From an uncultured virus (IMG/VR IMGVR_UViG_3300028498_000018) (taxonomy: Duplodnaviria > Heunggongvirae > Uroviricota > Caudoviricetes): 20,000 bases of DNA. Within the stretch, counting starts at the first letter, position 1; every line of letters starts with the position of its first letter. The DNA is taken from IMG/VR virus record IMGVR_UViG_3300028498_000018. One strand, given 5' to 3'. The translations under genes were made by a program, and so were the position numbers. Below, one piece after another: positions 4,088 to 16,881 of this stretch. The notes under the pieces were generated by a model that worked only from the letters and a program-made list of their open reading frames with translations, searched no databases and was not told the DNA's origin.

Positions 4088-4246
4088 TGGAAAAATTTTG
4101 GGGTCTGGGTTTGCACCGGGGGCTTGGAAAAATTTTGGGGGTCTGGGGATAGCCGGGGGCGACGGAGCTGTCGTGTGGAAGAGGTAGGGGTAAGAGGGAC
4201 ACCCCCGCCCCCCTATGCCGCGCCGACTCCCCACACCCCCCGCCCT
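4088..4246. repeat. Direct repeat TGGAAAAATTTTGGGG(G)TCTGGG x2 followed by G tracts then C tracts; pac/cos/terminus-like region
   Basis: Copies at 4088-4109 and 4125-4147. G runs continue to ~4198 and C runs span 4202-4245. Located just upstream of the terminase operon. Confidence 0.6.
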
Positions 4247-4557
4247 CTTCATCGTCGCCGCTCCACACACGATCGACCTGCTTCATGTTAGTAAGGACTC
4301 ACTATGATAAGCCTATGCAAAGCTTGACAAGCCTCAAGGCATAGGGAACGGGTACATTTAGAGGGTTTTAGTGGCCATAGGAGGCTCGCCACGCGATTCT
4401 GTGGAGGGTCAAGCTACCTACCCACCACCCGAAAACCCGAAACGTTGGCAGGGCGCTATTACGCGGCTCCTACGATCTGCCATAGGTGAAGCCATGCGGC
4501 ATAGGCATAAGGTTTGAAGCATAGGGGAACGGCCACGCTATGCGATCAAGGCATAAC
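4212..4557. repeat. Cluster of SCATAGG-like heptamers
   Basis: Plus strand at 4339, 4375, 4480, 4499, 4519, with variants at 4505 and 4551. Minus strand (CCTATGC) at 4212 and 4312. Confidence 0.6.
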
Positions 4558-4559
4558 GT

Positions 4560-5097
4560 CGGAAAACCGCATGTAATAAGGGTTCGAACGTCGGAAAACT
4601 GACGTGATGAAGACATCGCGCGCCACGTTTCAAGGGTCCGGGCGTCAAACCAACCTCAAAATGTTGCACCGCAGCACAAAATCAGGCAAAAACCAAGGTT
4701 GTAAGGAAAGTTCAAACAACCCTAAAACCTCTGTAACAGCGGAAAACTCCGCTCCATGCGGTTTTCCGTTTTCTGTTACGCGATGTTACAAAATGTTGTA
4801 ACAACAAAACTACTGTGCGTTAACCCAGCGTTTCACTCGGAAAACCGCATCCAGCAGTCACAAATTAGACTACCTTATTATTATTATTTGCTCTGTTACA
4901 TGTTACAAACAAAATGTACTGGAGTGTCAGGGTTCGTTTTGTTTTGTTGGTCGTTCCCTCCTTCCATCCTCCTAAAACACCGACGAAAACTTTGTAACAA
5001 GAAAACTCGACTTGTTTTGACGTAAGCCATTGAAACATAAGGGAAATTTTGTTACGCGGGTTTGTAACATCGTGAAACAAAGCGCCGAAAACCGCAT
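4560..5097. repeat. GAAAACCGCAT repeat, 4 copies
   Basis: 4562-4572 (+), 4756-4766 (-), 4840-4850 (+), 5087-5097 (+). In addition AACGTCGGAAAAC occurs at 4555 and 4587. Confidence 0.75.
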
Positions 5098-5143
5098 CCA
5101 CACGTGAGAATTTTGTTACAAAACCAAGCGGCACTTTGTAACA
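4732..5143. promoter_or_regulatory. Array of 11 TGTWAC(A/G) sites with an AT-rich core; putative replication origin/iteron or partition-site array
   Basis: Sites at 4732, 4774, 4784, 4797, 4894, 4901, 4993, 5050, 5063, 5114, 5137. TTATTATTATTATTT at ~4875-4889. IHF-like AAGCCATTGAAA at ~5024. Function inferred. Confidence 0.65.
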
Positions 5144-5247
5144 GGCTGGAAGCCCCTAAAATCAATGGTCCCGGTGCTGAACAGCTCAAGAATCGTTTAG
5201 GACCACGTAGAAACCACGCCAAAATCCACGTTTATTTTCGTTTCTAA

Positions 5248-5288
5248 GGGTTTCCCCTATCAAATCCATCGTTTTGCCGTGAGACATT
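5248..5288 (+). promoter_or_regulatory. Putative activator-dependent promoter, copy 1
   Basis: GGGTTTCCCCTA (5248-5259), 23 nt, GACATT (5283-5288), upstream of the first early gene. Confidence 0.65.
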
Positions 5289-5330
5289 ACATACATCGGC
5301 TCTAAGCCACAACACGAAAGCGAAACGATC

Positions 5331-5684
5331 ATGCAAAAGTTCATCCTCAATATCGGTCACGACACACGTTCAGGCAAGCTGCTTAATGCCGCACGCATCG
5401 CCAAAATCGTTGAGTTGTTCGTGGGTTTCGAAGTCACACAGAAACGCGTGGTTGTTGGCGAATACAACGGCAAAGCGGAGAAAACCAGCGTCATCTTTTG
5501 TCAGACCAAGAACTATGCCGGGAGCGTAGTGTTCAACGCTATATCAGGCGAATGTGATCAGGAGTGTATAGCGGTCGTAGAGCTGGGGAGCCGCGATAAC
5601 TTCGGCTCGACAACCGCCGTGGGTGATCTGTACGGGCACAATCCTAGCGGGTTATCGTTTGACTGGGCACATTTCAGAATCTAG
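5331..5684 (+). CDS. Putative S-adenosylmethionine lyase (SAMase, T3 gp0.3-like) anti-restriction protein
   Basis: VGEYNGKAEKTSVIFC and ECDQECIAV align by eye with T3 SAMase TGCY...EEKTVRVRC and EWEQDCVLV. It is the first gene of the early region, as 0.3 is in T3. Confidence 0.6.
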   Translation: MQKFILNIGHDTRSGKLLNAARIAKIVELFVGFEVTQKRVVVGEYNGKAEKTSVIFCQTKNYAGSVVFNAISGECDQECIAVVELGSRDNFGSTTAVGDLYGHNPSGLSFDWAHFRI

Positions 5685-5686
5685 TC

Positions 5687-5748
5687 AGAATCTTGTTTGT
5701 ATGCCCTACAACGGGCATACAGGCGGCGATTTTGCCGGTTAACGAAAG
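5687..5748 (+). ncRNA. Conserved intergenic RNA hairpin plus RBS tail, copy 1 (RNase III-site-like)
   Basis: AGAATC-TTGTTTGTATGCCC-tacaac-GGGCATACAGGCGG-c-GATTTT, followed by GCCGGTTAACGAAAG. Confidence 0.65.
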
Positions 5749-5754
5749 AATCAT

Positions 5755-5886
5755 ATGTGCGCAAACGATGTTGCTACTTGCTACGCCGTCGTCTTCGGCG
5801 TAGCGTTCCTCCTCGCAAGCTTCGGGGCGACCGTCGGGATTGTGTGGTGTATCTGCGACATCCTGAAAAGCTGTCGCGGCCAATAG
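5755..5886 (+). CDS. Small Cys-rich single-pass membrane protein (43 aa; not in ORF track)
   Basis: MCANDVATCYAVVFGVAFLLASFGATVGIVWCICDILKSCRGQ. Fits exactly between hairpin copies 1 and 2, behind the GAAAG RBS. Confidence 0.7.
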   Translation: MCANDVATCYAVVFGVAFLLASFGATVGIVWCICDILKSCRGQ

Positions 5887-5889
5887 AAC

Positions 5890-5952
5890 AGAATTCTGTC
5901 CGTGCGCCTACATGCTGGGCGCACAGGCGGCGATTTTGCCGGTTAACGAAAG
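5890..5952 (+). ncRNA. Conserved intergenic RNA hairpin plus RBS tail, copy 2
   Basis: AGAATT-CTGTCCGTGCGCCT-acatgct-GGGCGCACAGGCGG-c-GATTTT, followed by GCCGGTTAACGAAAG. Confidence 0.65.
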
Positions 5953-5959
5953 AACCATC

Positions 5960-6301
5960 ATGGCCAACGACATCACAACCACAACGCCGCTTCCTCATCT
6001 AGACCGTGACAACAAACGGGCGATCATCGCGTTCAGGACATCAAAAGCATCGGGAGGCGGACTATACGCGGCCGCGTCCGTGTATTTTCAAGACGGTCAA
6101 TTCATCACGTTTGAAATATTCGGAGATTTTCGGGTCAACGTGAAGCGTGCGCCTGAACTGCGGGCGACGGCGAAGAACATCGCAAACCTTCATGCCGAAG
6201 CGTTCAACGCGGGCGCACAGGCGGCACTTATTGAACAGGCCAACGCTTTTTATGCGAACAAGGCGCAGTCAGACGCGAATCGTGCAAGGGTTGCCGCGTA
6301 G
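5960..6301 (+). CDS. Hypothetical early protein (113 aa)
   Basis: Start MANDIT directly after the repeat's RBS tail. Confidence 0.8.
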   Translation: MANDITTTTPLPHLDRDNKRAIIAFRTSKASGGGLYAAASVYFQDGQFITFEIFGDFRVNVKRAPELRATAKNIANLHAEAFNAGAQAALIEQANAFYANKAQSDANRARVAA

Positions 6302-6341
6302 GGTTTGCCCTAATGACAACACCGGGTCAACGCGCTACTGT
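6301..6341 (+). promoter_or_regulatory. Putative activator-dependent promoter, copy 2
   Basis: GGGTTTGCCCTA (6301-6312) abutting ATGACA-17 nt-TACTGT (6336-6341). Confidence 0.7.
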
Positions 6342-6352
6342 TGACCCCTACA

Positions 6353-6382
6353 CCACACACCACCAGCGGAGAATCTACTATG
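6353..6382 (+). repeat. 30-nt start-associated repeat, copy 1
   Basis: CCACACACCACCAGCGGAGAATCTACTATG; contains GGAG RBS and the start codon. Confidence 0.9.
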
Positions 6383-6655
6383 AACATCATTAGCAACAAC
6401 ACACCACGCGACCTTATTTCATTCGCCGATCTGCCGGCGGACGCACAGGCGGAGTTTGATTACGTCGGCACGGACGAACGCTACGTCTGCCGATTTGCCC
6501 GATATAAGGGCAACTTCTACGACGTGGGCGACATCGCGTGCGCACCGGACAGTTTGCCGGGATGGCACGGCATACAGAACGAGTCCTACTTCAGCGGCGT
6601 GTTGTTTCACCTGTTGCCAAATGAGCGGGTCATCGTCGGCGCTTATTTCAACTAA
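6380..6655 (+). CDS. Hypothetical early protein (91 aa)
   Basis: Starts at the ATG of the repeat (MNIISNN). Confidence 0.85.
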   Translation: MNIISNNTPRDLISFADLPADAQAEFDYVGTDERYVCRFARYKGNFYDVGDIACAPDSLPGWHGIQNESYFSGVLFHLLPNERVIVGAYFN

Positions 6656-6656
6656 T

Positions 6657-6686
6657 CCACACAACACCAGCGGAGAATCTACTATG
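6657..6686 (+). repeat. 30-nt start-associated repeat, copy 2
   Basis: CCACACAACACCAGCGGAGAATCTACTATG; 1 mismatch to copy 1. Confidence 0.9.
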
Positions 6687-7028
6687 AACGAAAACATCGG
6701 TTACCACACGCGCCTATACACCGACAACTCGCAGAAGGTTGTAGGGGGAAGCTTCGGCGGACGGATCGACTCAGAAACCGTGGAGCGCCTAACCAAGGCG
6801 CACTTCTCGGTAGCCATCAAACCTAGCGGCACGGTTGTTTTCGTGGACAAACAAGGTAGGGAAGTGTGGTTGTATCTAACTGTTGACGCGGGATCGACGA
6901 CACAGGGGCGTGCGCTGGCTGTGCAGCACCGCAAGACGGTCGAAGCAGCTCAAGAGCAGCAACGAGTGCGGATCGATGAGCTGCTTGATTCGTTAAGCCC
7001 CGAAGAGATCATTGCTAGGCTGTCGTAA
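6684..7028 (+). CDS. Hypothetical early protein (114 aa)
   Basis: Starts at the ATG of the repeat (MNENIGY). Confidence 0.85.
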   Translation: MNENIGYHTRLYTDNSQKVVGGSFGGRIDSETVERLTKAHFSVAIKPSGTVVFVDKQGREVWLYLTVDAGSTTQGRALAVQHRKTVEAAQEQQRVRIDELLDSLSPEEIIARLS

Positions 7029-7036
7029 TCCCTACG

Positions 7037-7066
7037 CCACACACCACCAGCGGAGAATCTACCATG
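7037..7066 (+). repeat. 30-nt start-associated repeat, copy 3
   Basis: CCACACACCACCAGCGGAGAATCTACCATG; 1 mismatch to copy 1. Confidence 0.9.
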
Positions 7067-7468
7067 AGAACACACGAACTAATCAACAAGGCGGCGGACT
7101 TGATCGAGGCAACGGGCTGGACGCAGGGCGCGGGCGCTCGCGATGCGTACGGGAACTGTTGTTTCGTTAACCCGGGAGCTAATGACCCCGAACCCGTTTG
7201 TTTCTGCGCAAGTGGCGCGATAACCCGCGTGTTCGCTATCGAGCGGCAAGGGTTCACCGCAGGCGGACAGAAACTAGAGTCTCGCGCCCACAAAGCGCTG
7301 AACGCGGCAACGAGTTATCTCGACATCATCGCGTTCAACGACGCGCCGGGGCGCTCCGCCGATGAGGTCGTGGCGGTCCTACGCACGACGGCGGCCAAGC
7401 TTGCGGCGGAGGAAGAGGCGGTGGACGCAGCGCTACTGACTGAATTGCAACAGGGCACTACACAGTGA
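7064..7468 (+). CDS. DUF6197-like phage protein (134 aa)
   Basis: Pattern AADLIEATGWTQG...CASGAI...FNDAPGRSADEVVAVL resembles the DUF6197 family (recognised by eye). Confidence 0.7.
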   Translation: MRTHELINKAADLIEATGWTQGAGARDAYGNCCFVNPGANDPEPVCFCASGAITRVFAIERQGFTAGGQKLESRAHKALNAATSYLDIIAFNDAPGRSADEVVAVLRTTAAKLAAEEEAVDAALLTELQQGTTQ

Positions 7469-7683
7469 AGCCTAGAAACGCAAGCACAATCAGCGACGGG
7501 GCACTGCGGACTCTCCTTAGAGGGTTTGCGCTGCTCCTTAATGTGGAGATAACAGAGACCCCGGATAAGGTCGTTGTAATCGAAACGCATCTGCGGCGGG
7601 GCGTCATAGTCACGCTAACGGCGCAGCGACGGGGCAACGTGTGGGACATCGAGGTTGTAGTCGTGCCCCTGAAAGACATCTAG
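7465..7683 (+). CDS. Hypothetical protein (72 aa)
   Basis: GTGA overlap with the upstream gene; ends immediately before hairpin copy 3. Confidence 0.65.
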   Translation: MKPRNASTISDGALRTLLRGFALLLNVEITETPDKVVVIETHLRRGVIVTLTAQRRGNVWDIEVVVVPLKDI

Positions 7684-7742
7684 AGTTCTGTCCATGTGCC
7701 CGCATCGGGTACATCGGCGGTAATTTTACCGGGCAACGAAAG
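7682..7742 (+). ncRNA. Conserved intergenic RNA hairpin plus RBS tail, copy 3
   Basis: AGAGTT-CTGTCCATGTGCCC-gcatc-GGGTACATCGGCGG-t-AATTTT, followed by ACCGGGCAACGAAAG. Confidence 0.65.
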
Positions 7743-7749
7743 GCTGATC

Positions 7750-7920
7750 ATGTGGACGATATACGATAGAAAAGAGGGCTGTTATGTTGGCAAACCCTAC
7801 GGCAACCGGCGGCGGGCACAGTCTCGCGCTGAACGACTGGACCTGATATATGGGGCCTATCGCTACAACGTGCGGGCACTTACGAAACCCGAAACGAGCG
7901 AGGCAAGCTATGTTGACTGA
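7750..7920 (+). CDS. Small basic hypothetical protein (56 aa)
   Basis: MWTIYDRKEG... follows the GAAAGG RBS of the repeat. Confidence 0.75.
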   Translation: MWTIYDRKEGCYVGKPYGNRRRAQSRAERLDLIYGAYRYNVRALTKPETSEASYVD

Positions 7921-8059
7921 GACGCAACGACGCAAACCCTATGTAAAGCCCATTACATATAACGGCGTGTTAGTCGGTTGGCGCGTATACGTGCGCCATG
8001 CAAATAGCCTGTTTGGCGCATCATTTCTTAAACATATCTGGAAAGAACCAACAAAATGA
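7910..8059 (+). CDS. Hypothetical protein (49 aa)
   Basis: MLTETQRRKP... after GAGG; overlaps both neighbours. Confidence 0.6.
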   Translation: MLTETQRRKPYVKPITYNGVLVGWRVYVRHANSLFGASFLKHIWKEPTK

Positions 8060-8771
8060 AAACCAACAAAGTTCAACAGTGGACCGCAAAACTAAACAGC
8101 GGATTTTTAGATGGCGTATTTTGGACGCCAACGGATACCGCTTCATTGAAGCGAGCAACAAACAATTCAAACCGGACGCTAGAAGTCACGGCGCAAGACA
8201 TAGAGGGCCTGATCGAGGCGGCCAACGAGCTGGACAAACNNNNNNNNNNNNNNNNNNNNNNNNNNNNNNNNNNNNNNNNNNNNNNNNNNNNNNNNNNNNN
8301 NNNNNNNNNNNNNNNNNNNNNNNNNNNNNNNNNNNNNNNGTCACGGCGCAAGACATAGAGGGCCTGATCGAGGCGGCCAACGAGCTGGACAAACCGCTGC
8401 CGGTCAACGGACACCACGAAGACAAAGCGTTCAAATTTTGGCGCGACACCGTTTTAAAACCCGACGGCGGACTGCGTAGGACGGCGGAGGTTAAGAGCCT
8501 CAGCACGGCGGAGCTGAAGGTCATCCTTGCGTATCTTGAGTGGCACGCGGGGAAAAAATACTTGGTTGCCGACGAACAAGTCAATCGCCCGCATCATGCG
8601 TTCAACGGGTTACATGACGCCACCAGCGAAGCGAGATACCGGCATAGCGGAGGGTTAACGCGTGACGTGGTCCCCGTGTGGCGCATGATCGTTCCGGGCG
8701 TGGGTTATCTGGACTATACCTACGGCGGCACGCTGGCGATTCTTCAGGTGGTACTAACCGAAGCAGAATAA
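8056..8771 (+). CDS. Hypothetical protein (~186 aa once the scaffold gap is collapsed)
   Basis: MKTNKVQ...VTAQDIEGLIEAANELDK joins PLPVNGHH...VLTEAE in one frame after removing the 100 N and one copy of the 55-nt overlap. Confidence 0.75.
8240..8339. other. Scaffold gap (100 N) flanked by an identical 55-nt overlap
   Basis: 8185-8239 is identical to 8340-8394, typical of a k=55 assembler join. Confidence 0.9.
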
Positions 8772-8784
8772 TTTTAAGGCTTGC

Positions 8785-8825
8785 GGGTTTTCCCTAATGT
8801 AATTCATTGAGAACCCGCAGACAAT
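8785..8825 (+). promoter_or_regulatory. Putative activator-dependent promoter, copy 3
   Basis: GGGTTTTCCCTA (8785-8796), 23 nt, GACAAT (8820-8825). Confidence 0.7.
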
Positions 8826-8855
8826 AGAGTTATCAACACAAACAGGACAACGATC

Positions 8856-9023
8856 ATGACAACGGAAAGAACGATTCAAGGAGCATGGCGCGTCTCGGAC
8901 GTGATCGACGGCCAGCTCGAAACCCGGCAGTATTTTGGGTACACGAAACGCGAAGCTGTCGAAGCATTTAAGGTGGTCATTGCTGACGCACAATCTAAAA
9001 TCATCAGGGAGCAACGCGCATGA
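8856..9023 (+). CDS. Hypothetical protein (55 aa; not in ORF track)
   Basis: MTTERTIQGAWRVSDVIDGQLETRQYFGYTKREAVEAF... with an AGGA RBS; ATGA overlap with the next gene. Confidence 0.8.
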   Translation: MTTERTIQGAWRVSDVIDGQLETRQYFGYTKREAVEAFKVVIADAQSKIIREQRA

Positions 9024-9316
9024 ACACAACAGAATTCGGCGGACGCGTTGAGTCCGTGTATGACCCTGAACTCCACGACGGAGACCTTGAGAACGTACAT
9101 GCTATTTGTCTGGACTTCGATGGCAGCATCATCGACTCTGATGATGACCTAGAGTTCATGGAGTTCGGCGATTACTTCAGCGTCTTCCTGCACTTGCGCG
9201 ACGGCGGCATGGACTGCGTCGGCAACTTCAAAACCCTGAAGGAAGCGCAAGCTTACCGCGACGGGCACGCAACCAATTACATCAATGGACAACGCAATGA
9301 ACACCAAAATATTTGA
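9020..9316 (+). CDS. Acidic hypothetical protein (98 aa)
   Basis: ATGA-coupled, GGGAG RBS, Asp/Glu-rich. Confidence 0.75.
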   Translation: MNTTEFGGRVESVYDPELHDGDLENVHAICLDFDGSIIDSDDDLEFMEFGDYFSVFLHLRDGGMDCVGNFKTLKEAQAYRDGHATNYINGQRNEHQNI

Positions 9317-11566: not shown

Positions 11567-11761
11567 ATGAAAATATATCTCAGCACGGGCGAAGCCATTG
11601 ACAACGGGCGCATCGCCCGCTCTACCCAAGAACACGAGGGCTGGTATTCTGGCAAACTCGTAGTGGACCGGGAGGAGCCCAAATTCCCTTGGTGGGTCTC
11701 CAGCGCTGCTGTGATCCTTCTCTGCATCTCGGTGATCCTCCTCTGCACGGGGGCGAAGTGA
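11567..11761 (+). CDS. Small protein with C-terminal membrane anchor (64 aa)
   Basis: AAAGG RBS; hydrophobic tail FPWWVSSAAVILLCISVILLC. Confidence 0.7.
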   Translation: MKIYLSTGEAIDNGRIARSTQEHEGWYSGKLVVDREEPKFPWWVSSAAVILLCISVILLCTGAK

Positions 11762-12390
11762 GCGCGCTAGTCAGGCACCAGCACTACGGCCTAGTCCTAG
11801 AACGGGCTCGCCAACTCGTGTCAGGTGAAACTGCTGCCGGGTGGTGGCGGTGGGAGTACAAGACACCCGTTGGCAAGCAGGGCTGCCACTGGATGGAGAC
11901 TGAATTTCCGGCATTCGACTCGTGGGTATACCGATGCACTGCGACCGACAAACACCCGGACTACGAGTCCATGAATCCCAAGCTGAAGCTGGAGCTTCGG
12001 CTGATTGACATGAGCAAACTCCCTCCCGGGTCAGAGGTTAGAGTGCAGTATGGGGAGGACGACACCCCAACACGGTTCAAGGTGCTGTCAGCAGGGGCCA
12101 TCAACCTGACTATTTTGAGCCACAACCTCCTCCGGGTCGAAGTGTGGCCCAAGGGCTACCTACGCCTCATGGAGCAGAACGAGTTTACTTTCTGGAGTGG
12201 ATGTGCGTGCCCCGTGCCGGAGGGTGTAGAGGTCGAAGCGATAGTACGAGCAGGCACTAGCAGTAGGTTTCATGGAGCACGCAGCGGGTACTGGCACCAC
12301 GGTGGCAACCCTGACAACAACAACATCATCGGCTACCGCATCATAGGTGCGGCTGATGGCTGGACAGATGACCCGGAGAAAGCGAAATGA
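11758..12390 (+). CDS. Hypothetical protein, paralog A (~210 aa)
   Basis: GTGA overlap start; C-terminal WSGCACPVP...WHH...IIGYRI phage domain. Confidence 0.8.
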   Translation: MSALVRHQHYGLVLERARQLVSGETAAGWWRWEYKTPVGKQGCHWMETEFPAFDSWVYRCTATDKHPDYESMNPKLKLELRLIDMSKLPPGSEVRVQYGEDDTPTRFKVLSAGAINLTILSHNLLRVEVWPKGYLRLMEQNEFTFWSGCACPVPEGVEVEAIVRAGTSSRFHGARSGYWHHGGNPDNNNIIGYRIIGAADGWTDDPEKAK

Positions 12391-12989
12391 ACACACTGAC
12401 GCAGCACAAACACCACGACCTAATCATAGAGCGCGCTCGTCAAGATGCCAGCGGGGAGACTGCTGCTGGGTGGTGGAAATGGGACGTTCGGCTAAAAAAA
12501 CAGCCCCAGTATCTGCCGCTCGCAGCAGATTACCCGGCGTGGCACGCCAACAGTGACTACCAGTACCGCATGACACCCGCCCACCCGTATTACGAGGCAC
12601 CGAAGCCCAAGCTGATTAACATGAGCAAGTTGCCGAAGGGTAGCGTTGTGTTAGGAGACTACGGCGCGCACGCGGTTGTAGTTAAATGCAACCCCGGCAC
12701 AGAGTACACATGGGTACTGGACGGCGCATTGATCCCATCAAACGTTAAGAGTGGCGACCTGCGCATCGCCGAGCAGAAAGACTTTACTTACTGGGGCGGC
12801 GGCGAGTGCCCTGTGCCGGACGGTGTGAATGTGCAGGTGGTGTTCCGAAGTGGGCAGACGCTGGCGTTCACAAACCCTACTGTGCAGACGTGGGCACACG
12901 CAGCACAACACAAAATCATAGATGTTATCGGTTACCGCATCATAGGCGCGGCTGATGGCTGGACAGATGACCCGGAGCAAGCAAAATGA
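12387..12989 (+). CDS. Hypothetical protein, paralog B (200 aa)
   Basis: Colinear with paralog A (ERARQxxSGETAAGWW, LIxMSKLP, WGGGECPVP, IGYRIIGAADGWTDDPE). Confidence 0.85.
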   Translation: MNTLTQHKHHDLIIERARQDASGETAAGWWKWDVRLKKQPQYLPLAADYPAWHANSDYQYRMTPAHPYYEAPKPKLINMSKLPKGSVVLGDYGAHAVVVKCNPGTEYTWVLDGALIPSNVKSGDLRIAEQKDFTYWGGGECPVPDGVNVQVVFRSGQTLAFTNPTVQTWAHAAQHKIIDVIGYRIIGAADGWTDDPEQAK

Positions 12990-13210
12990 AGATCGAAGTA
13001 AACGAGTACCTAGTTATTTTTGGGCTAGTGTCATTCACTCTGGGGCTGGTGGCCCCGGCAATAAGCGTACTGTGTGTGGCCTTTCTCGGGTGTCCAACAA
13101 CGCACCGAGTAGTGCGATGGGCTGATGGAGTCGGTGTCGTGGGCTTTATCGGGGTAGGGTTGACATTCCTCCTTAGCCTCTGGACATATGTCTTGAGGGG
13201 GCTAGTATGA
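12986..13210 (+). CDS. Two-TM membrane protein (74 aa)
   Basis: Two hydrophobic segments; ATGA overlaps on both sides. Confidence 0.7.
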   Translation: MKIEVNEYLVIFGLVSFTLGLVAPAISVLCVAFLGCPTTHRVVRWADGVGVVGFIGVGLTFLLSLWTYVLRGLV

Positions 13211-13551
13211 CATACGCTAGCGCTTACCCCAACGGTTCAACTCGCGAGACCATGAAGAACGACAGCGACGGCAAGGTCCACGGAGACTGGTGCCAGTTCT
13301 ACCCCAACGGCACTCCGAAGATGACGGCCAGCTACCAGCACGGCGTGCTTCATGGGGATGTCAGTCATTACCGCGAAGACGGCAGGCTTGAGCGAACCGC
13401 CACGTATCAGGACGGCGTTCAGGTGTATGCAGCTGGGGCCGACGAGCAGATGCTGATCAACATCGACAGCCACTCTTCGCGTTACCCCGGTGAGTTCCCT
13501 AATTACCTGGCAGGACTACAAAACCCCAAGGAACTAGATGGCCTCAAATAA
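13207..13551 (+). CDS. MORN-variant repeat protein (YwqK antitoxin-like, 114 aa)
   Basis: Repeats YPNGSTRE / GKVHGDWCQFYPNGTPK / YQHGVLHGDVSHYREDGRLE / YQDG. Confidence 0.8.
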   Translation: MTYASAYPNGSTRETMKNDSDGKVHGDWCQFYPNGTPKMTASYQHGVLHGDVSHYREDGRLERTATYQDGVQVYAAGADEQMLINIDSHSSRYPGEFPNYLAGLQNPKELDGLK

Positions 13552-14425
13552 ACTACGGGCTCTGCCGGGCGTCAAGCGCGGCGCGGACTTCATTCTGGCC
13601 CCACTGGCTCTCATCGAGCCCGATGACGGCTGGAACGTACGCCACGAGGACGACGACCTTCAGGCCCACATCAAGCGCATCGCCGAATCAATCCTCAACG
13701 GCGGGACAGTACCACCTCTACAGGTGTACGAACGAAACGGCAAATTGATATTGGTCGACGGCCACTGCCGCACCCGGGCGTACCAGATAGCTAAAGAAAA
13801 CGGCGCGGACATTGACTTAGTGCCCATCATTGAGTTTGTGGGCGACGACGCGGACCGCCTGTCGTTCATGTTCACCAGCTCGCAAGGCAAGGCGCTCACC
13901 CCCTACGAGCAGTCAGTGGTGTTCAAGCGGCTGCAAAAGTTCAATTGGACCACGGCCGCTATCGCGCTGCGGGTGGGGCGTTCTGTCAAGTTCGTCAACG
14001 ATATGCTCAAGCTCGCCAACTCTGACACCGAGGTCAAAGAGCTTGTGGCCTCGGGCCAAGTGGCCGTCACGGCTGCGGTCAAGGTTGTCAAGGAGGCCGG
14101 GGCAGGCGCAGCAGCAGAGCTACGCGAGAAGATTAAGAAGGTCAACGCTAACGTGAAGGAAGGCGAGAAGCCTATCCGCGTGACCGACAGGCACGTCGAC
14201 ACGCCCGGCATATCGAAGTCCCTGCAACTCAGGGTCATCGAAATGTTTGACAACCTGCCGAGCCTAGTTGGCGAAGAGGTGTATGCGCTGGCGCTGCCTA
14301 ACGTTGGGGCGAATGCGAACCAGCTCGACGAGGCCGACATCGACGTGAGCCTGTTTGCTATCGTGCAGCTCATCCAGATGCAAATAGAAATTAACCGCGA
14401 ACGAGAGGATCGAATCAATGGCTAA
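13538..14425 (+). CDS. ParB/Srx N-terminal domain protein with HTH (295 aa)
   Basis: IAESILNGGTVPPLQV...LVDGHCRTRAY (ParB box-like), LTPYEQ and the HTH TTAAIALRVGRSVKFVNDMLKL. Confidence 0.85.
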   Translation: MASNKLRALPGVKRGADFILAPLALIEPDDGWNVRHEDDDLQAHIKRIAESILNGGTVPPLQVYERNGKLILVDGHCRTRAYQIAKENGADIDLVPIIEFVGDDADRLSFMFTSSQGKALTPYEQSVVFKRLQKFNWTTAAIALRVGRSVKFVNDMLKLANSDTEVKELVASGQVAVTAAVKVVKEAGAGAAAELREKIKKVNANVKEGEKPIRVTDRHVDTPGISKSLQLRVIEMFDNLPSLVGEEVYALALPNVGANANQLDEADIDVSLFAIVQLIQMQIEINREREDRING

Positions 14426-15305: not shown

Positions 15306-15622
15306 TGGACTCGTTCGTAGCCGTCGTGGGTTGGCTGGTCGTTCTGGGCCTGGTCACCTCTCTTGCCGCGCTCCTGTGTATCTCCGTGTTCTACGGCGCG
15401 ATGATACTGGTGGACGCGATGAAGGAACGCGGGGAGCACGAAGCCCGCACCCGTTTGTACCAGCAATTCATCAGCGCGTCGCACTGGTTCAGCGAACACC
15501 CGCCAACAAGTAGGCTAATGCGGGCACACGCAGACCACCTCGTCCAATACTGCGGCGGGGATTTTAGTGGCCTGCGCGACGAGTGGCGCAAAGACATGAA
15601 AAAAGAAAAGGACCCGACATGA
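15302..15622 (+). CDS. Protein with N-terminal TM segment (106 aa)
   Basis: Hydrophobic residues ~5-37; ATGA overlaps. Confidence 0.7.
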   Translation: MMDSFVAVVGWLVVLGLVTSLAALLCISVFYGAMILVDAMKERGEHEARTRLYQQFISASHWFSEHPPTSRLMRAHADHLVQYCGGDFSGLRDEWRKDMKKEKDPT

Positions 15623-16470
15623 AACCCCTAGTTATCTATCACGGCAACTGCGCCGATGGATTTGCTGCCGCGTGGTGCTTCCACCACTTGCGTCCTGACG
15701 TATTTGATTTCCACCCTGGAGTGTACGGTGACCCCCCACCGGACGTAGAGGGGCGAGACGTGTTCTTGGTTGACTTCAGCTACAAGCGCGAGACCGTTGA
15801 GATCATGCTCAGCGAGGCGCTGTCGGTCACGTTGATTGACCACCACATCTCTGCGATCAGGGACCTGGAAGAGGTTCGTGGGCTCACACAGTACACAGAC
15901 ATTGAGCGCAGTGGCGCGATGCTGGCATGGGACTTCCTGAACCACAACTTCACACCTGTGAAGTTCGGCGGCACACGGGTCGAACCACCCCGCCTGCTCG
16001 AACACATCCAAGACCGCGACCTGTGGCGGTTCGCTCTGCCAATGACCCGTGAGATACAGTCAAACGTGTTCAGCCATCCGTACACCTTCGAGGTGTACGA
16101 CAAGCTCATGGCGTTGAAGGGCCTGGACCTGGCAGAGTTCGCGGCTGCTGGTGCGGCAATCGACCGGAAGCAATCGAAGGACCTGGCGGAGCTAATCCCT
16201 CAGCTGACCAGGACCATGAACATCGGCGGGCATGATGTGCCCGTTGCGAACCTCCCTTATATGATGGCCTCCGAGGCGGGAAACATGCTCAGCGTCCACC
16301 ACGCATTCGCTGGCACTTACTTCGACACCCAGACACACCGCAAGTTCTCGCTCCGCTCGCAAAAGGGCAAGCAGGACGTTAGCGTTATTGCTGTCAAGTA
16401 CGGCGGCGGAGGCCACGCCAATGCAGCGGGGTTTCAGGTCGAACGCGCTCACTATCTAGCACTATCATGA
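15619..16470 (+). CDS. DHH/DHHA1 family phosphoesterase (283 aa)
   Basis: YHGNCADG, LVDFS, LIDHH, QDRDLW, SLRS and GGGGHANAAG motifs. AAAGGA RBS before MKPLVIY. Confidence 0.92.
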   Translation: MKPLVIYHGNCADGFAAAWCFHHLRPDVFDFHPGVYGDPPPDVEGRDVFLVDFSYKRETVEIMLSEALSVTLIDHHISAIRDLEEVRGLTQYTDIERSGAMLAWDFLNHNFTPVKFGGTRVEPPRLLEHIQDRDLWRFALPMTREIQSNVFSHPYTFEVYDKLMALKGLDLAEFAAAGAAIDRKQSKDLAELIPQLTRTMNIGGHDVPVANLPYMMASEAGNMLSVHHAFAGTYFDTQTHRKFSLRSQKGKQDVSVIAVKYGGGGHANAAGFQVERAHYLALS

Positions 16471-16658
16471 GCGACACGTGTGTTGGCTGTGACAACCTTG
16501 AACTACCCAGCGATGGCGGGCATTGTTATATGTTCGCTACCGCACCTACTGACGGGTTTTGCGGCCAGCACACGGCGGTTCAGAGGGCTATACGGTCCTC
16601 CCCCACACTGACCAAAATAATTCTGTCGGCAGCGGTGCTGGCGGCAATACGAAGGTGA
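16467..16658 (+). CDS. Small Cys/His protein, possible metal-binding (63 aa)
   Basis: CVGC...HC...CGQH pattern. Confidence 0.6.
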   Translation: MSDTCVGCDNLELPSDGGHCYMFATAPTDGFCGQHTAVQRAIRSSPTLTKIILSAAVLAAIRR

Positions 16659-16665
16659 AACCAAA

Positions 16666-16881
16666 ATGAAAACAATTGATATAGTTTTGTTACTGCTTGC
16701 AACAATAAGTGCAACTGCGTTCATATTTAGCATGATGATAGACACCCTCTATATGAAAATGCGAAGAGAACCGCACGCTATTTTTGACGTGCTTCTTTTT
16801 GGTAGCGCGGCTTTAACAATAGTTGGAGTGCTAGGCTTGGCATGGGTTGGAGTTGCCAGGGCGATAGGTTGTATGGTATGA
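16666..16881 (+). CDS. Two-TM membrane protein (71 aa)
   Basis: Two hydrophobic segments; AAGGTG RBS. Confidence 0.7.
   Translation: MKTIDIVLLLLATISATAFIFSMMIDTLYMKMRREPHAIFDVLLFGSAALTIVGVLGLAWVGVARAIGCMV

Follow-up and report, generated by a model that had tools for sequence, protein, structure and literature searches.

What purpose is served, in the early messages of an uncultured tailed phage, by a hairpin that recurs between unrelated genes and always ends just short of a start codon? The question is raised by a stretch of 20,000 nucleotides (nt) from the viral record IMGVR_UViG_3300028498_000018 (hereafter the window, meaning this stretch at its full length; G+C content 55%), on whose plus strand three copies of an imperfect inverted repeat, here called c1, c2 and c3, are each followed by a conserved leader and an ATG. 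An earlier note on this DNA had described them as a covarying RNA hairpin fused to a ribosome-binding tail and as a candidate undescribed motif. The evidence that the element is a plus-strand RNA structure under selection is good, and is drawn from geometry, repetition, position and compensation. The function of the structure is a more tentative matter: at somewhat less than an even chance, the elements are a signal for the processing or stability of mRNA, probably for host RNase III, and this account is weighed below against its competitors.

The three copies lie where the earlier note had placed them, its starts (5687, 5890 and 7682) falling 1 nt inside the boundaries drawn here. Hairpin c1 (5686-5734) consists of seven basal pairs, a bulged C, 14 more pairs and a 6-nt loop; it begins 1 nt past the stop codon TAG (5682-5684) of a gene for 117 amino acids (aa), and its leader (CCGGTTAACGAAAGAATCAT, 5735-5754) runs to the ATG at 5755 of a hydrophobic open reading frame (ORF) of 43 aa. 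Hairpin c2 (5889-5938), with 21 pairs, one C.A mismatch and a 5-nt loop, begins 2 nt past the stop codon TAG at 5884-5886, and its leader (5939-5959) is followed by the ATG at 5960 of a 113-aa gene. In hairpin c3 (7681-7728), which has 21 pairs, one C.C mismatch, a bulged U and a 3-nt loop, the opening three bases are themselves the stop codon TAG (7681-7683) of a 72-aa upstream ORF, lying within the hairpin base; the leader (CCGGGCAACGAAAGGCTGATC, 7729-7749) precedes the ATG at 7750 of a 56-aa gene. Thus the claim that each copy starts at or near a stop codon and ends 6-7 nt before an ATG was borne out for all three. The single 3' bulged pyrimidine and the 14-position stem were likewise recovered in every copy, both in the folds and in the alignment, and only the basal stem needed correction, from the six pairs first described to the seven counted here (the additional pair being C-G, C-G and U-A).

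Each leader is 20-21 nt long and is composed of CCGGKYAACGAAAG and a further 6-7 nt before the ATG, the distance from the end of its AAAG to the start codon being 6, 7 and 7 nt in c1, c2 and c3; the tail pattern occurs three times in the window, against 0.00 expected. The elements occupy stop-to-start gaps of 66-73 nt among small genes of the same strand, downstream of a non-coding region of 1 kilobase (kb) and within the first 2.5 kb of the early gene run. Conservation is concentrated in the lower stem, bulge and tail; the upper eight pairs and the loop (3-6 nt) vary. The 3' 34 nt are identical between c1 and c2, which bracket the 43-aa ORF, and differ in c3 at 8 of the 34 positions. Gene duplication does not account for the repeat, since the genes on which it borders are not paralogous (best E 0.14 in an all-against-all comparison of 14 proteins).

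Folded as plus-strand RNA, all three copies form a single unbranched hairpin of 21 pairs, at -28.3, -30.4 and -26.5 kcal/mol for c1, c2 and c3 (z-scores -3.9, -2.8 and -1.5), whereas the minus-strand folds are weaker (-23.6, -28.5 and -17.1 kcal/mol) and do not make one long stem. The three-copy alignment, a small sample of paralogous copies, has standard pairs in 61 of its 63 pair cells. Ten of the 21 pairs are invariant, five vary on one side, five are changed on both sides and one is broken; the broken pair is C.A in c2 and C.C in c3 and occupies the same alignment column, as had been noticed before. The observed number of double changes was reached by 3 of 500 shuffles, and when the partners were slid by one to three columns just 35-44% of cells paired, with no double changes. 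Outside the doubly compensated pairs, every difference in the 5' arm is C/U opposite G or A/G opposite U, that is, a change silent for RNA pairing on the plus strand only. With DNA parameters the long stem, which depends on G-U pairs, was absent from all six folds of either strand. Two further claims of the earlier note are upheld by these results: that the upper stem varies with its pairing kept, and that the G-U pairs work on the plus strand alone.

A covariance model built from the c1-c3 alignment scored its own members at 92.5, 91.7 and 86.3 bits and found only these three in the window at E < 1e-17, the next match being the reverse strand of c1 at 13 bits. If hairpins are counted that are unbranched, have 18 or more pairs and contain no more than two defects, the plus strand of the window has four, three of them c1-c3, and the minus strand none; ten Markov-random sequences of the same first-order composition gave none or one each. 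Fold energy by itself is no outlier among 60-nt windows of this GC-rich DNA.

How such a structure might act is suggested by its setting. From the same-strand packing of the early genes we infer that they are transcribed as a single polycistronic operon, within whose plus-strand message c1-c3 would be cis-acting structures. Each unit would have two parts: the 21-pair helix, about two A-form turns, starting at the stop codon of the upstream cistron, and the conserved leader, single-stranded and furnishing the following cistron with its ribosome-binding site. The cistrons would be parted when host RNase III, an enzyme specific for double strands, bound the helix and cleaved it, and the single 3' bulge and the mismatch may confine cutting to one strand; the upstream message would end in a protective 3' hairpin, and the downstream message would begin just before the unstructured leader. 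RNase III as the reader, together with these consequences of its cutting, is what we infer from several features of the element. In the part of PMC1540722 drawn on here, substrates of the Escherichia coli enzyme are described as typically two helical turns long, and loops or bulges as able to limit it to one phosphodiester, which yields 3' hairpins protective against exonucleases. The two-turn length (about 20-22 pairs) is matched by the 21 pairs of all three copies, and the interruptions (a 1-nt 3' bulge in each, one mismatch in two of the three) are smaller than the internal loops of phage T7. The number of pairs stays at 21 despite a changing upper stem and loop and therefore suits a reader that measures length. 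Of the functions put forward in the earlier note, mRNA processing or stabilization fits best, in view of this length and of a layout shared with T7, and a recombination hairpin of single-stranded DNA is disfavored.

Several considerations weigh against a role in RNase III processing. A helix so nearly continuous is usually cut by the enzyme on both strands, with loss of the protective hairpin. The rules established for E. coli RNase III may not be those of the phage's host. The covariation statistics are thin, coming from three paralogues without orthologues, and the shuffles give no probabilities. The four T7 spacers folded for comparison are probably the sites R0.3, R0.5, R1 and R1.3, whose mapping is reported by Dunn and Studier (1983); the T7 record does not annotate them. 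A probable fourth copy, described below, has 12 pairs, too short for RNase III if that copy is functional. Furthermore, although sequence conservation is not required by RNase III, hardly any change is seen in the lower stem, bulge and tail, as would fit either a sequence-specific binder or recent common descent.

The first of these leads to an unlikely competitor, namely that the element is an operator for a sequence-specific RNA-binding protein, of phage or host, that would jointly repress or activate the translation of the three downstream genes; the protein would recognize, besides the bulged pyrimidine, the lower stem with its many G-U pairs (CUGUC/GGCGG) and the adjoining single-stranded CCGGKYAACGAAAG. 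The operators of T4 RegA, gene 43 and gene 32 are analogues. Such a protein would explain the retention of the lower stem, tail and bulge position beside an upper stem (eight pairs) and a loop that vary freely with compensation, and the tail adjoins the start codon, 6-7 nt away. It is also in keeping with the candidate degenerate fourth copy (16620-16648, plus strand), whose 12 pairs retain exactly the conserved core: UUCUGUC...GGCGG, the bulged C and the AAU foot. That candidate lies within the last codons of a putative 63-aa ORF, its tail shortened to ACGAAGG...ATG at 16666; it was read by eye, scores 9.6 bits with the covariance model (E 0.85) and has a fold that is not distinctive (z -0.4), and on this weak evidence it is a probable decayed copy. 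Against an operator, no RNA-binding protein family was found among the 33 window proteins covered by family scans, most of which could be assigned to no family; recent duplication or gene conversion may simply account for the conserved 3' half; and a similar leader, lacking the hairpin, precedes the first early gene.

The leader just mentioned (5311-5330, plus strand) carries ACGAAAG...GATC-ATG as in the hairpin tails, with no hairpin of the c1-c3 family. A converse case is found at 8766-8834 on the plus strand, where a hairpin of unrelated sequence repeats the layout: a lower stem, an internal loop and an upper stem overlap the stop codon TAA (8769-8771) and are followed by a 21-nt leader (to 8855) and the ATG at 8856. 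Its fold of -25.4 kcal/mol (z -4.71) was equaled by none of 200 shuffles, and by eye its lower stem, AAUUUUA / UAGAGUU, is the basal helix of c3 with the arms exchanged. Within 5685-8855, each spacer of at least 66 nt has a hairpin beginning at or near the stop codon, that at 8766-8834 being the strongest of those outside c1-c3. Structured spacers opening at a stop codon are thus a habit of this early operon, the layout being shared by a hairpin of unrelated sequence.

An explanation less likely than an operator is that the hairpin is a passive spacer that blocks 3'-to-5' exonucleases after cleavage at other places and insulates the cistrons with no dedicated nuclease or binder, the tail being a copied initiation region. 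In its favor are the stability of the hairpins (-26 to -30 kcal/mol), the presence of some stop-codon hairpin in every one of the longer spacers, and the hairpin-free use of the leader motif ACGAAAG...ATC-ATG before the gene at 5331. A simple barrier, however, needs neither a constant 21 pairs nor a conserved bulge and mismatch, as a 9-pair GC-rich stem suffices for it.

The 3' arm admits a second fold, and with it a different mechanism. It can pair with the 5' arm in the 21-pair helix or, with the beginning of the tail, form a small hairpin CGGYR-AUUU-URCCG; when the first 13 nt were held unpaired, all three copies were predicted to refold to the upper hairpin plus this small one. In the alternative fold 43 of 45 cells pair. 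In c3 the "bulged" pyrimidine and its partner in the small hairpin have changed jointly, from C-G to U-A, and because the change is joint the same two 3'-arm substitutions are compensated in both folds; as support for the second fold this is weak, being one event in one copy. An improbable model is that of a two-state intercistronic switch responsive to the ribosomes that translate the upstream gene. The 5' arm would be covered by a ribosome paused at the stop codon, which would favor the small hairpin, and the long helix, the nuclease substrate, would exist only on untranslated messages. If this were true, how each early cistron decays or is processed, or whether the next start is accessible, would depend on translation of the preceding cistron, and the two folds would constitute a simple natural device coupling the fate of an mRNA to upstream translation.

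Two explanations place the element at the level of transcription. The hairpin might be a leaky intrinsic terminator or attenuator by which early transcription is graded from gene to gene, its stem of 14-16 pairs being followed by UUUU and the A-rich base upstream pairing with this U-run. With AUUUUG/A at the end of the 3' arm and AGAAU/AGAGU at the 5' base, it has the A-tract/U-tract arrangement of many terminators. A scan for the consensus (a GC-rich stem followed by a U-run of at least 5 T in 8) nevertheless called nothing at c1-c3, its two sites in 4200-9200 lying elsewhere and on the minus strand. Only four U are present, and the stem beside them is at its weakest, mostly G-U; the hairpin of the same layout at 8766-8834 has no U-run; and three terminators within 2 kb, each before a gene with a good leader, would be odd. 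Termination is quite improbable as the function. More improbable again is that the conserved 3' half (GGCGGYRATTTTRCCGGKYAACGAAAG) contains a promoter used by an RNA polymerase of the phage itself, in which case the hairpin would be part of the upstream transcript. Sequence conservation extends over about 27 nt, near the size of promoters of single-subunit polymerases, and T7 has such promoters beside its RNase III hairpins (phi1.1A, phi1.1B and phi1.3 are listed there in the T7 record). No RNA polymerase family, however, was found in the 20-kb window (53 kb of the contig lie outside it), and several of the eight changes by which c3 departs in its 3' 34 nt are exactly pairing-preserving, which a promoter does not explain.

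Other repeated leaders and small hairpins are present in the same gene run. A second leader family (6346-6383, 6650-6687 and 7030-7067) precedes three unrelated consecutive genes with their ATG codons at 6380, 6684 and 7064; its members are CA-rich and then read CAGCGGAGAATCTACYATG (core GGAGAATCTACYATG), are 87-95% identical between copies and have no hairpin of their own, a separate 9-pair hairpin (6324-6347) preceding the first. At 7979-7998 a 7-pair hairpin, GGCGCGU...GUGCGCC, ends at the ATG at 7998 and would bury the ribosome-binding region of that gene. Within the gene at 6684-7028, positions 6693-6848 give a 156-nt coding match, 72% identical, to a hypothetical gene of the Burkholderia jumbo phage BcepSauron (MK552141.1). 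There the gene is flanked by a repeated cassette (620-700 and 1085-1165) of TTGACG, a GC-rich hairpin spacer and TATACT, which is a promoter with a built-in stem-loop; as this differs from the cassette in the window, the shared ORF has different, phage-specific regulatory cassettes in the two phages.

These repeats bear on a further explanation, to which only a slim chance is given, that the element is a recombination module, either a patch of homology or a hairpin site in single-stranded DNA for swapping early-gene cassettes. The same element stands before unrelated genes, and c1 and c2, on either side of the 43-aa ORF, agree in all of their 3' 34 nt. The second leader family is repeated before three other genes, and the gene at 6684-7028 is flanked in BcepSauron by that phage's own promoter-hairpin cassettes. 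Two direct copies of the 9-nt word TCAGAATCT (5674-5693), separated by 2 nt, lie about the stop codon that ends the first early gene; the second is the 5' foot of the c1 hairpin, and the repeat may be a trace of the element's insertion or duplication. Yet exchange of this kind concerns the evolution of the element more than its function and is compatible with a role as RNA, and homology alone does not account for selection on RNA pairing. The hairpin of single-stranded DNA proposed in the earlier note has a stem that is poor as DNA, being lost from all six DNA-parameter folds, and no integrase or recombinase family is present among the 33 proteins scanned. The elements also have no promoter-like site and hence are not PeSLs, the stem-loop cassettes considered below.

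The genome around the elements, on a contig of 73.6 kb, is that of a novel, apparently lytic phage, of which the window is the early and replication region. The large terminase (TerL; phrog_2, 179-1909) is on the minus strand, with two more ORFs of that strand upstream. The structural genes of the minus strand are separated from the early genes of the plus strand by 1 kb without a long ORF (about 4290-5330). It is rich in short repeats, with CATAGG-type words at 4300-4560 and CGGAAAACCGCAT-type words in both orientations, and it also holds TTGTTAC/GTAACA palindromes and a 49-nt inverted repeat (4756-4804 / 5049-5097). The contigs of terminase relatives terminate near this stretch, which may contain early promoters or operators, an origin, or a genome end. 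From 5331 on, the plus-strand genes are densely packed and are mostly small and without a family. Family scans identified a ParB-like protein (13538-14425), a DHH phosphoesterase (15583-16470) and a family-A DNA polymerase (17929 to the window end), all on the plus strand. No protein of the phage exceeds about 31% identity to a GenBank phage: the closest matches there are at about 31% for the DNA polymerase (Pseudomonas phages Rollin and KPP25, and Rhizobium phages) and at 25-29% for the terminase, and megablast of the whole window against 50,697 phage records gave no match. Homologues of the DHH protein at 56-58% identity are present in Paraburkholderia and Burkholderia genomes, and together with the 156-nt stretch shared with BcepSauron they hint at a host among the Burkholderiales.

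The first early gene (5331-5684, plus strand), which ends just before c1, encodes the 117-aa protein of phrog_11722. A match to the Pfam S-adenosylmethionine lyase family fell below threshold (18.6 bits against a cut-off of 28), and the search for a relative with a solved structure found none. If the match is real, this would be an anti-restriction gene placed as gene 0.3 is in phage T3. Farther along, 100 N (8240-8339) are bordered by two identical 55-nt stretches (8185-8239 and 8340-8394), and 8185-8394 looks like a scaffold gap with overlapping sides; because the N run has identical flanks, the 257-aa ORF at 7998-8771 is probably an artefact of the join and truly shorter. At 11689-12989 two neighboring paralogous genes (233 and 200 aa) have a common C-terminal domain, phrog_9174, and both end in a 64-nt repeat (12328-12391 and 12927-12990, 94% identical) that runs into the next start codon.

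Relatives of the element were sought widely. The covariance models of Rfam 15 gave no match at E <= 1 over the whole window on both strands, and membership of an Rfam family is rejected. In IMG/VR contigs, three exact tail/leader patterns found nothing and a gapped stem pattern found three loci, none a hairpin of this kind; pattern scans of metagenome contigs gave 51 loci, all single chance matches and none with hairpin arms upstream, the contig of the window itself not being among them, and those of genome contigs gave none. When the region or a single element was compared with phages by blastn, just the BcepSauron coding match and two chance matches of 18-23 nt were returned, and plasmids gave no match. 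Relatives of the phage were approached through its proteins. As single queries against IMG/VR contigs, the ParB-like protein and TerL gave no loci; an alignment of TerL found three IMG/VR fragments (49-54% identity), which end about 0.6-1.8 kb upstream of TerL, so that the early region is not included, and in none of which did the covariance model find a match, and the same alignment found no relative among genome contigs. An alignment of the DHH protein found 80 loci (43-58% identity). Over all 83 loci (1.30 Mb) the covariance model gave three matches at E <= 10, the best of them (E 0.89) inside a coding sequence. Closer relatives are on the protein record (TerL at 87, 69, 66 and 60% identity; DHH at 84, 75 and 74%). 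In the first 50 kb of the distantly related Rhizobium phage RHph_TM3_14A, a scan for long unbranched hairpins only found 18 of at least 17 pairs, the longest, of 24 pairs (26161-26213), lying between two annotated coding sequences. The description of the motif as new thus holds within these searches, neither Rfam nor the collections having yielded a homologue, and the element is lineage-specific but of a familiar kind, that of intercistronic hairpins in phage early operons.

It remains to set the element beside systems that resemble it. The attC sites of integrons fold as single-stranded DNA and need an integrase. Like c1-c3 they are imperfect hairpins with an extrahelical base and a variable center that bound gene cassettes, and an attC-like site was considered and rejected: the long stem fails with DNA parameters in six of six folds, the 33 proteins include no integrase, and no R or L boxes were seen by eye. 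Like the element, Rho-independent terminators have a hairpin whose 5' foot is A-rich and whose 3' foot carries a U-run; a standard intrinsic terminator was rejected on account of the four U, the weak G-U stem base, the length of the stem (21 pairs) and the absence of a call in the scan.

The PeSLs of T4-like phages are, in the part of PMC4122927 drawn on here, composite terminator/promoter stem-loop cassettes. As described there, they are, like c1-c3, short intergenic stem-loop cassettes repeated in variable early regions, and both may be points of exchange. A PeSL, however, joins an early sigma-70 promoter to a terminator stem-loop, whereas c1-c3 leave just 20-21 nt between hairpin and ATG. 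PeSL membership was rejected, as none of the seven promoter-like or two terminator-like sites in 4200-9200 lies in the elements.

A closer resemblance in arrangement is offered by the SAS and ESAS repeats of Cluster K mycobacteriophages, as presented in the part of PMC3203893 (Pope et al. 2011) drawn on here. Both those repeats and the present element have a conserved asymmetric motif a few nucleotides upstream of the starts of non-structural genes, in one orientation; both are, in a subset of cases, preceded by an imperfect inverted repeat with a variable spacer; and both stand before unrelated genes and are confined to one phage lineage. The 13-nt SAS consensus has no match with two or fewer mismatches in the window. 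According to the same portion of that source, the departures in the repeats do not support RNA pairing and a DNA-binding protein is favored by its authors. Departures in the 17-bp ESAS repeat are described as not keeping RNA pairing, whereas those of c1-c3 keep it (five double and five single changes among 21 pairs), which means that an inverted repeat with a start-associated motif need not be a DNA site and can instead be a structure in RNA.

The early-mRNA RNase III sites of T7 (R0.3, R0.5, R1, R1.1 and R1.3) provide the nearest parallel. Four T7 early spacers, folded from the RefSeq record, are 62-80 nt long and have the stop codon in a lower stem, then an internal loop, an upper stem, a Shine-Dalgarno leader of about 20 nt and the AUG; c1-c3 match them in this succession of stop codon, helix, leader and AUG. 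The four spacers are themselves a sequence family (66% mean column identity) whose upper stems covary between copies. In both phages, then, sequence-related hairpins in several copies occupy early-gene spacers at or on the stop codon, with a total helix length of about two turns and about 20 nt, with Shine-Dalgarno sequence and AUG, after it. The two sets have no sequence similarity, and the tail is conserved as sequence in the present phage. They differ also in that T7 places an internal loop of 2-5 nt between a lower stem of five or six pairs and an upper stem of 9-13, whereas the 21 pairs of c1-c3 are interrupted only by the 1-nt 3' bulge and, in two of three copies, by one mismatch. By analogy, the element most likely works as the T7 sites do and is a candidate member of their class. 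It could be used as a test substrate for RNase III of a non-model host and as a marker for the early operon of this phage group. T7-like phages use structured spacers to make, from one transcript, early messages of differing lifetime and yield; outside a few model phages such spacer signals have rarely been mapped, and c1-c3 add a clean, covarying example to them.

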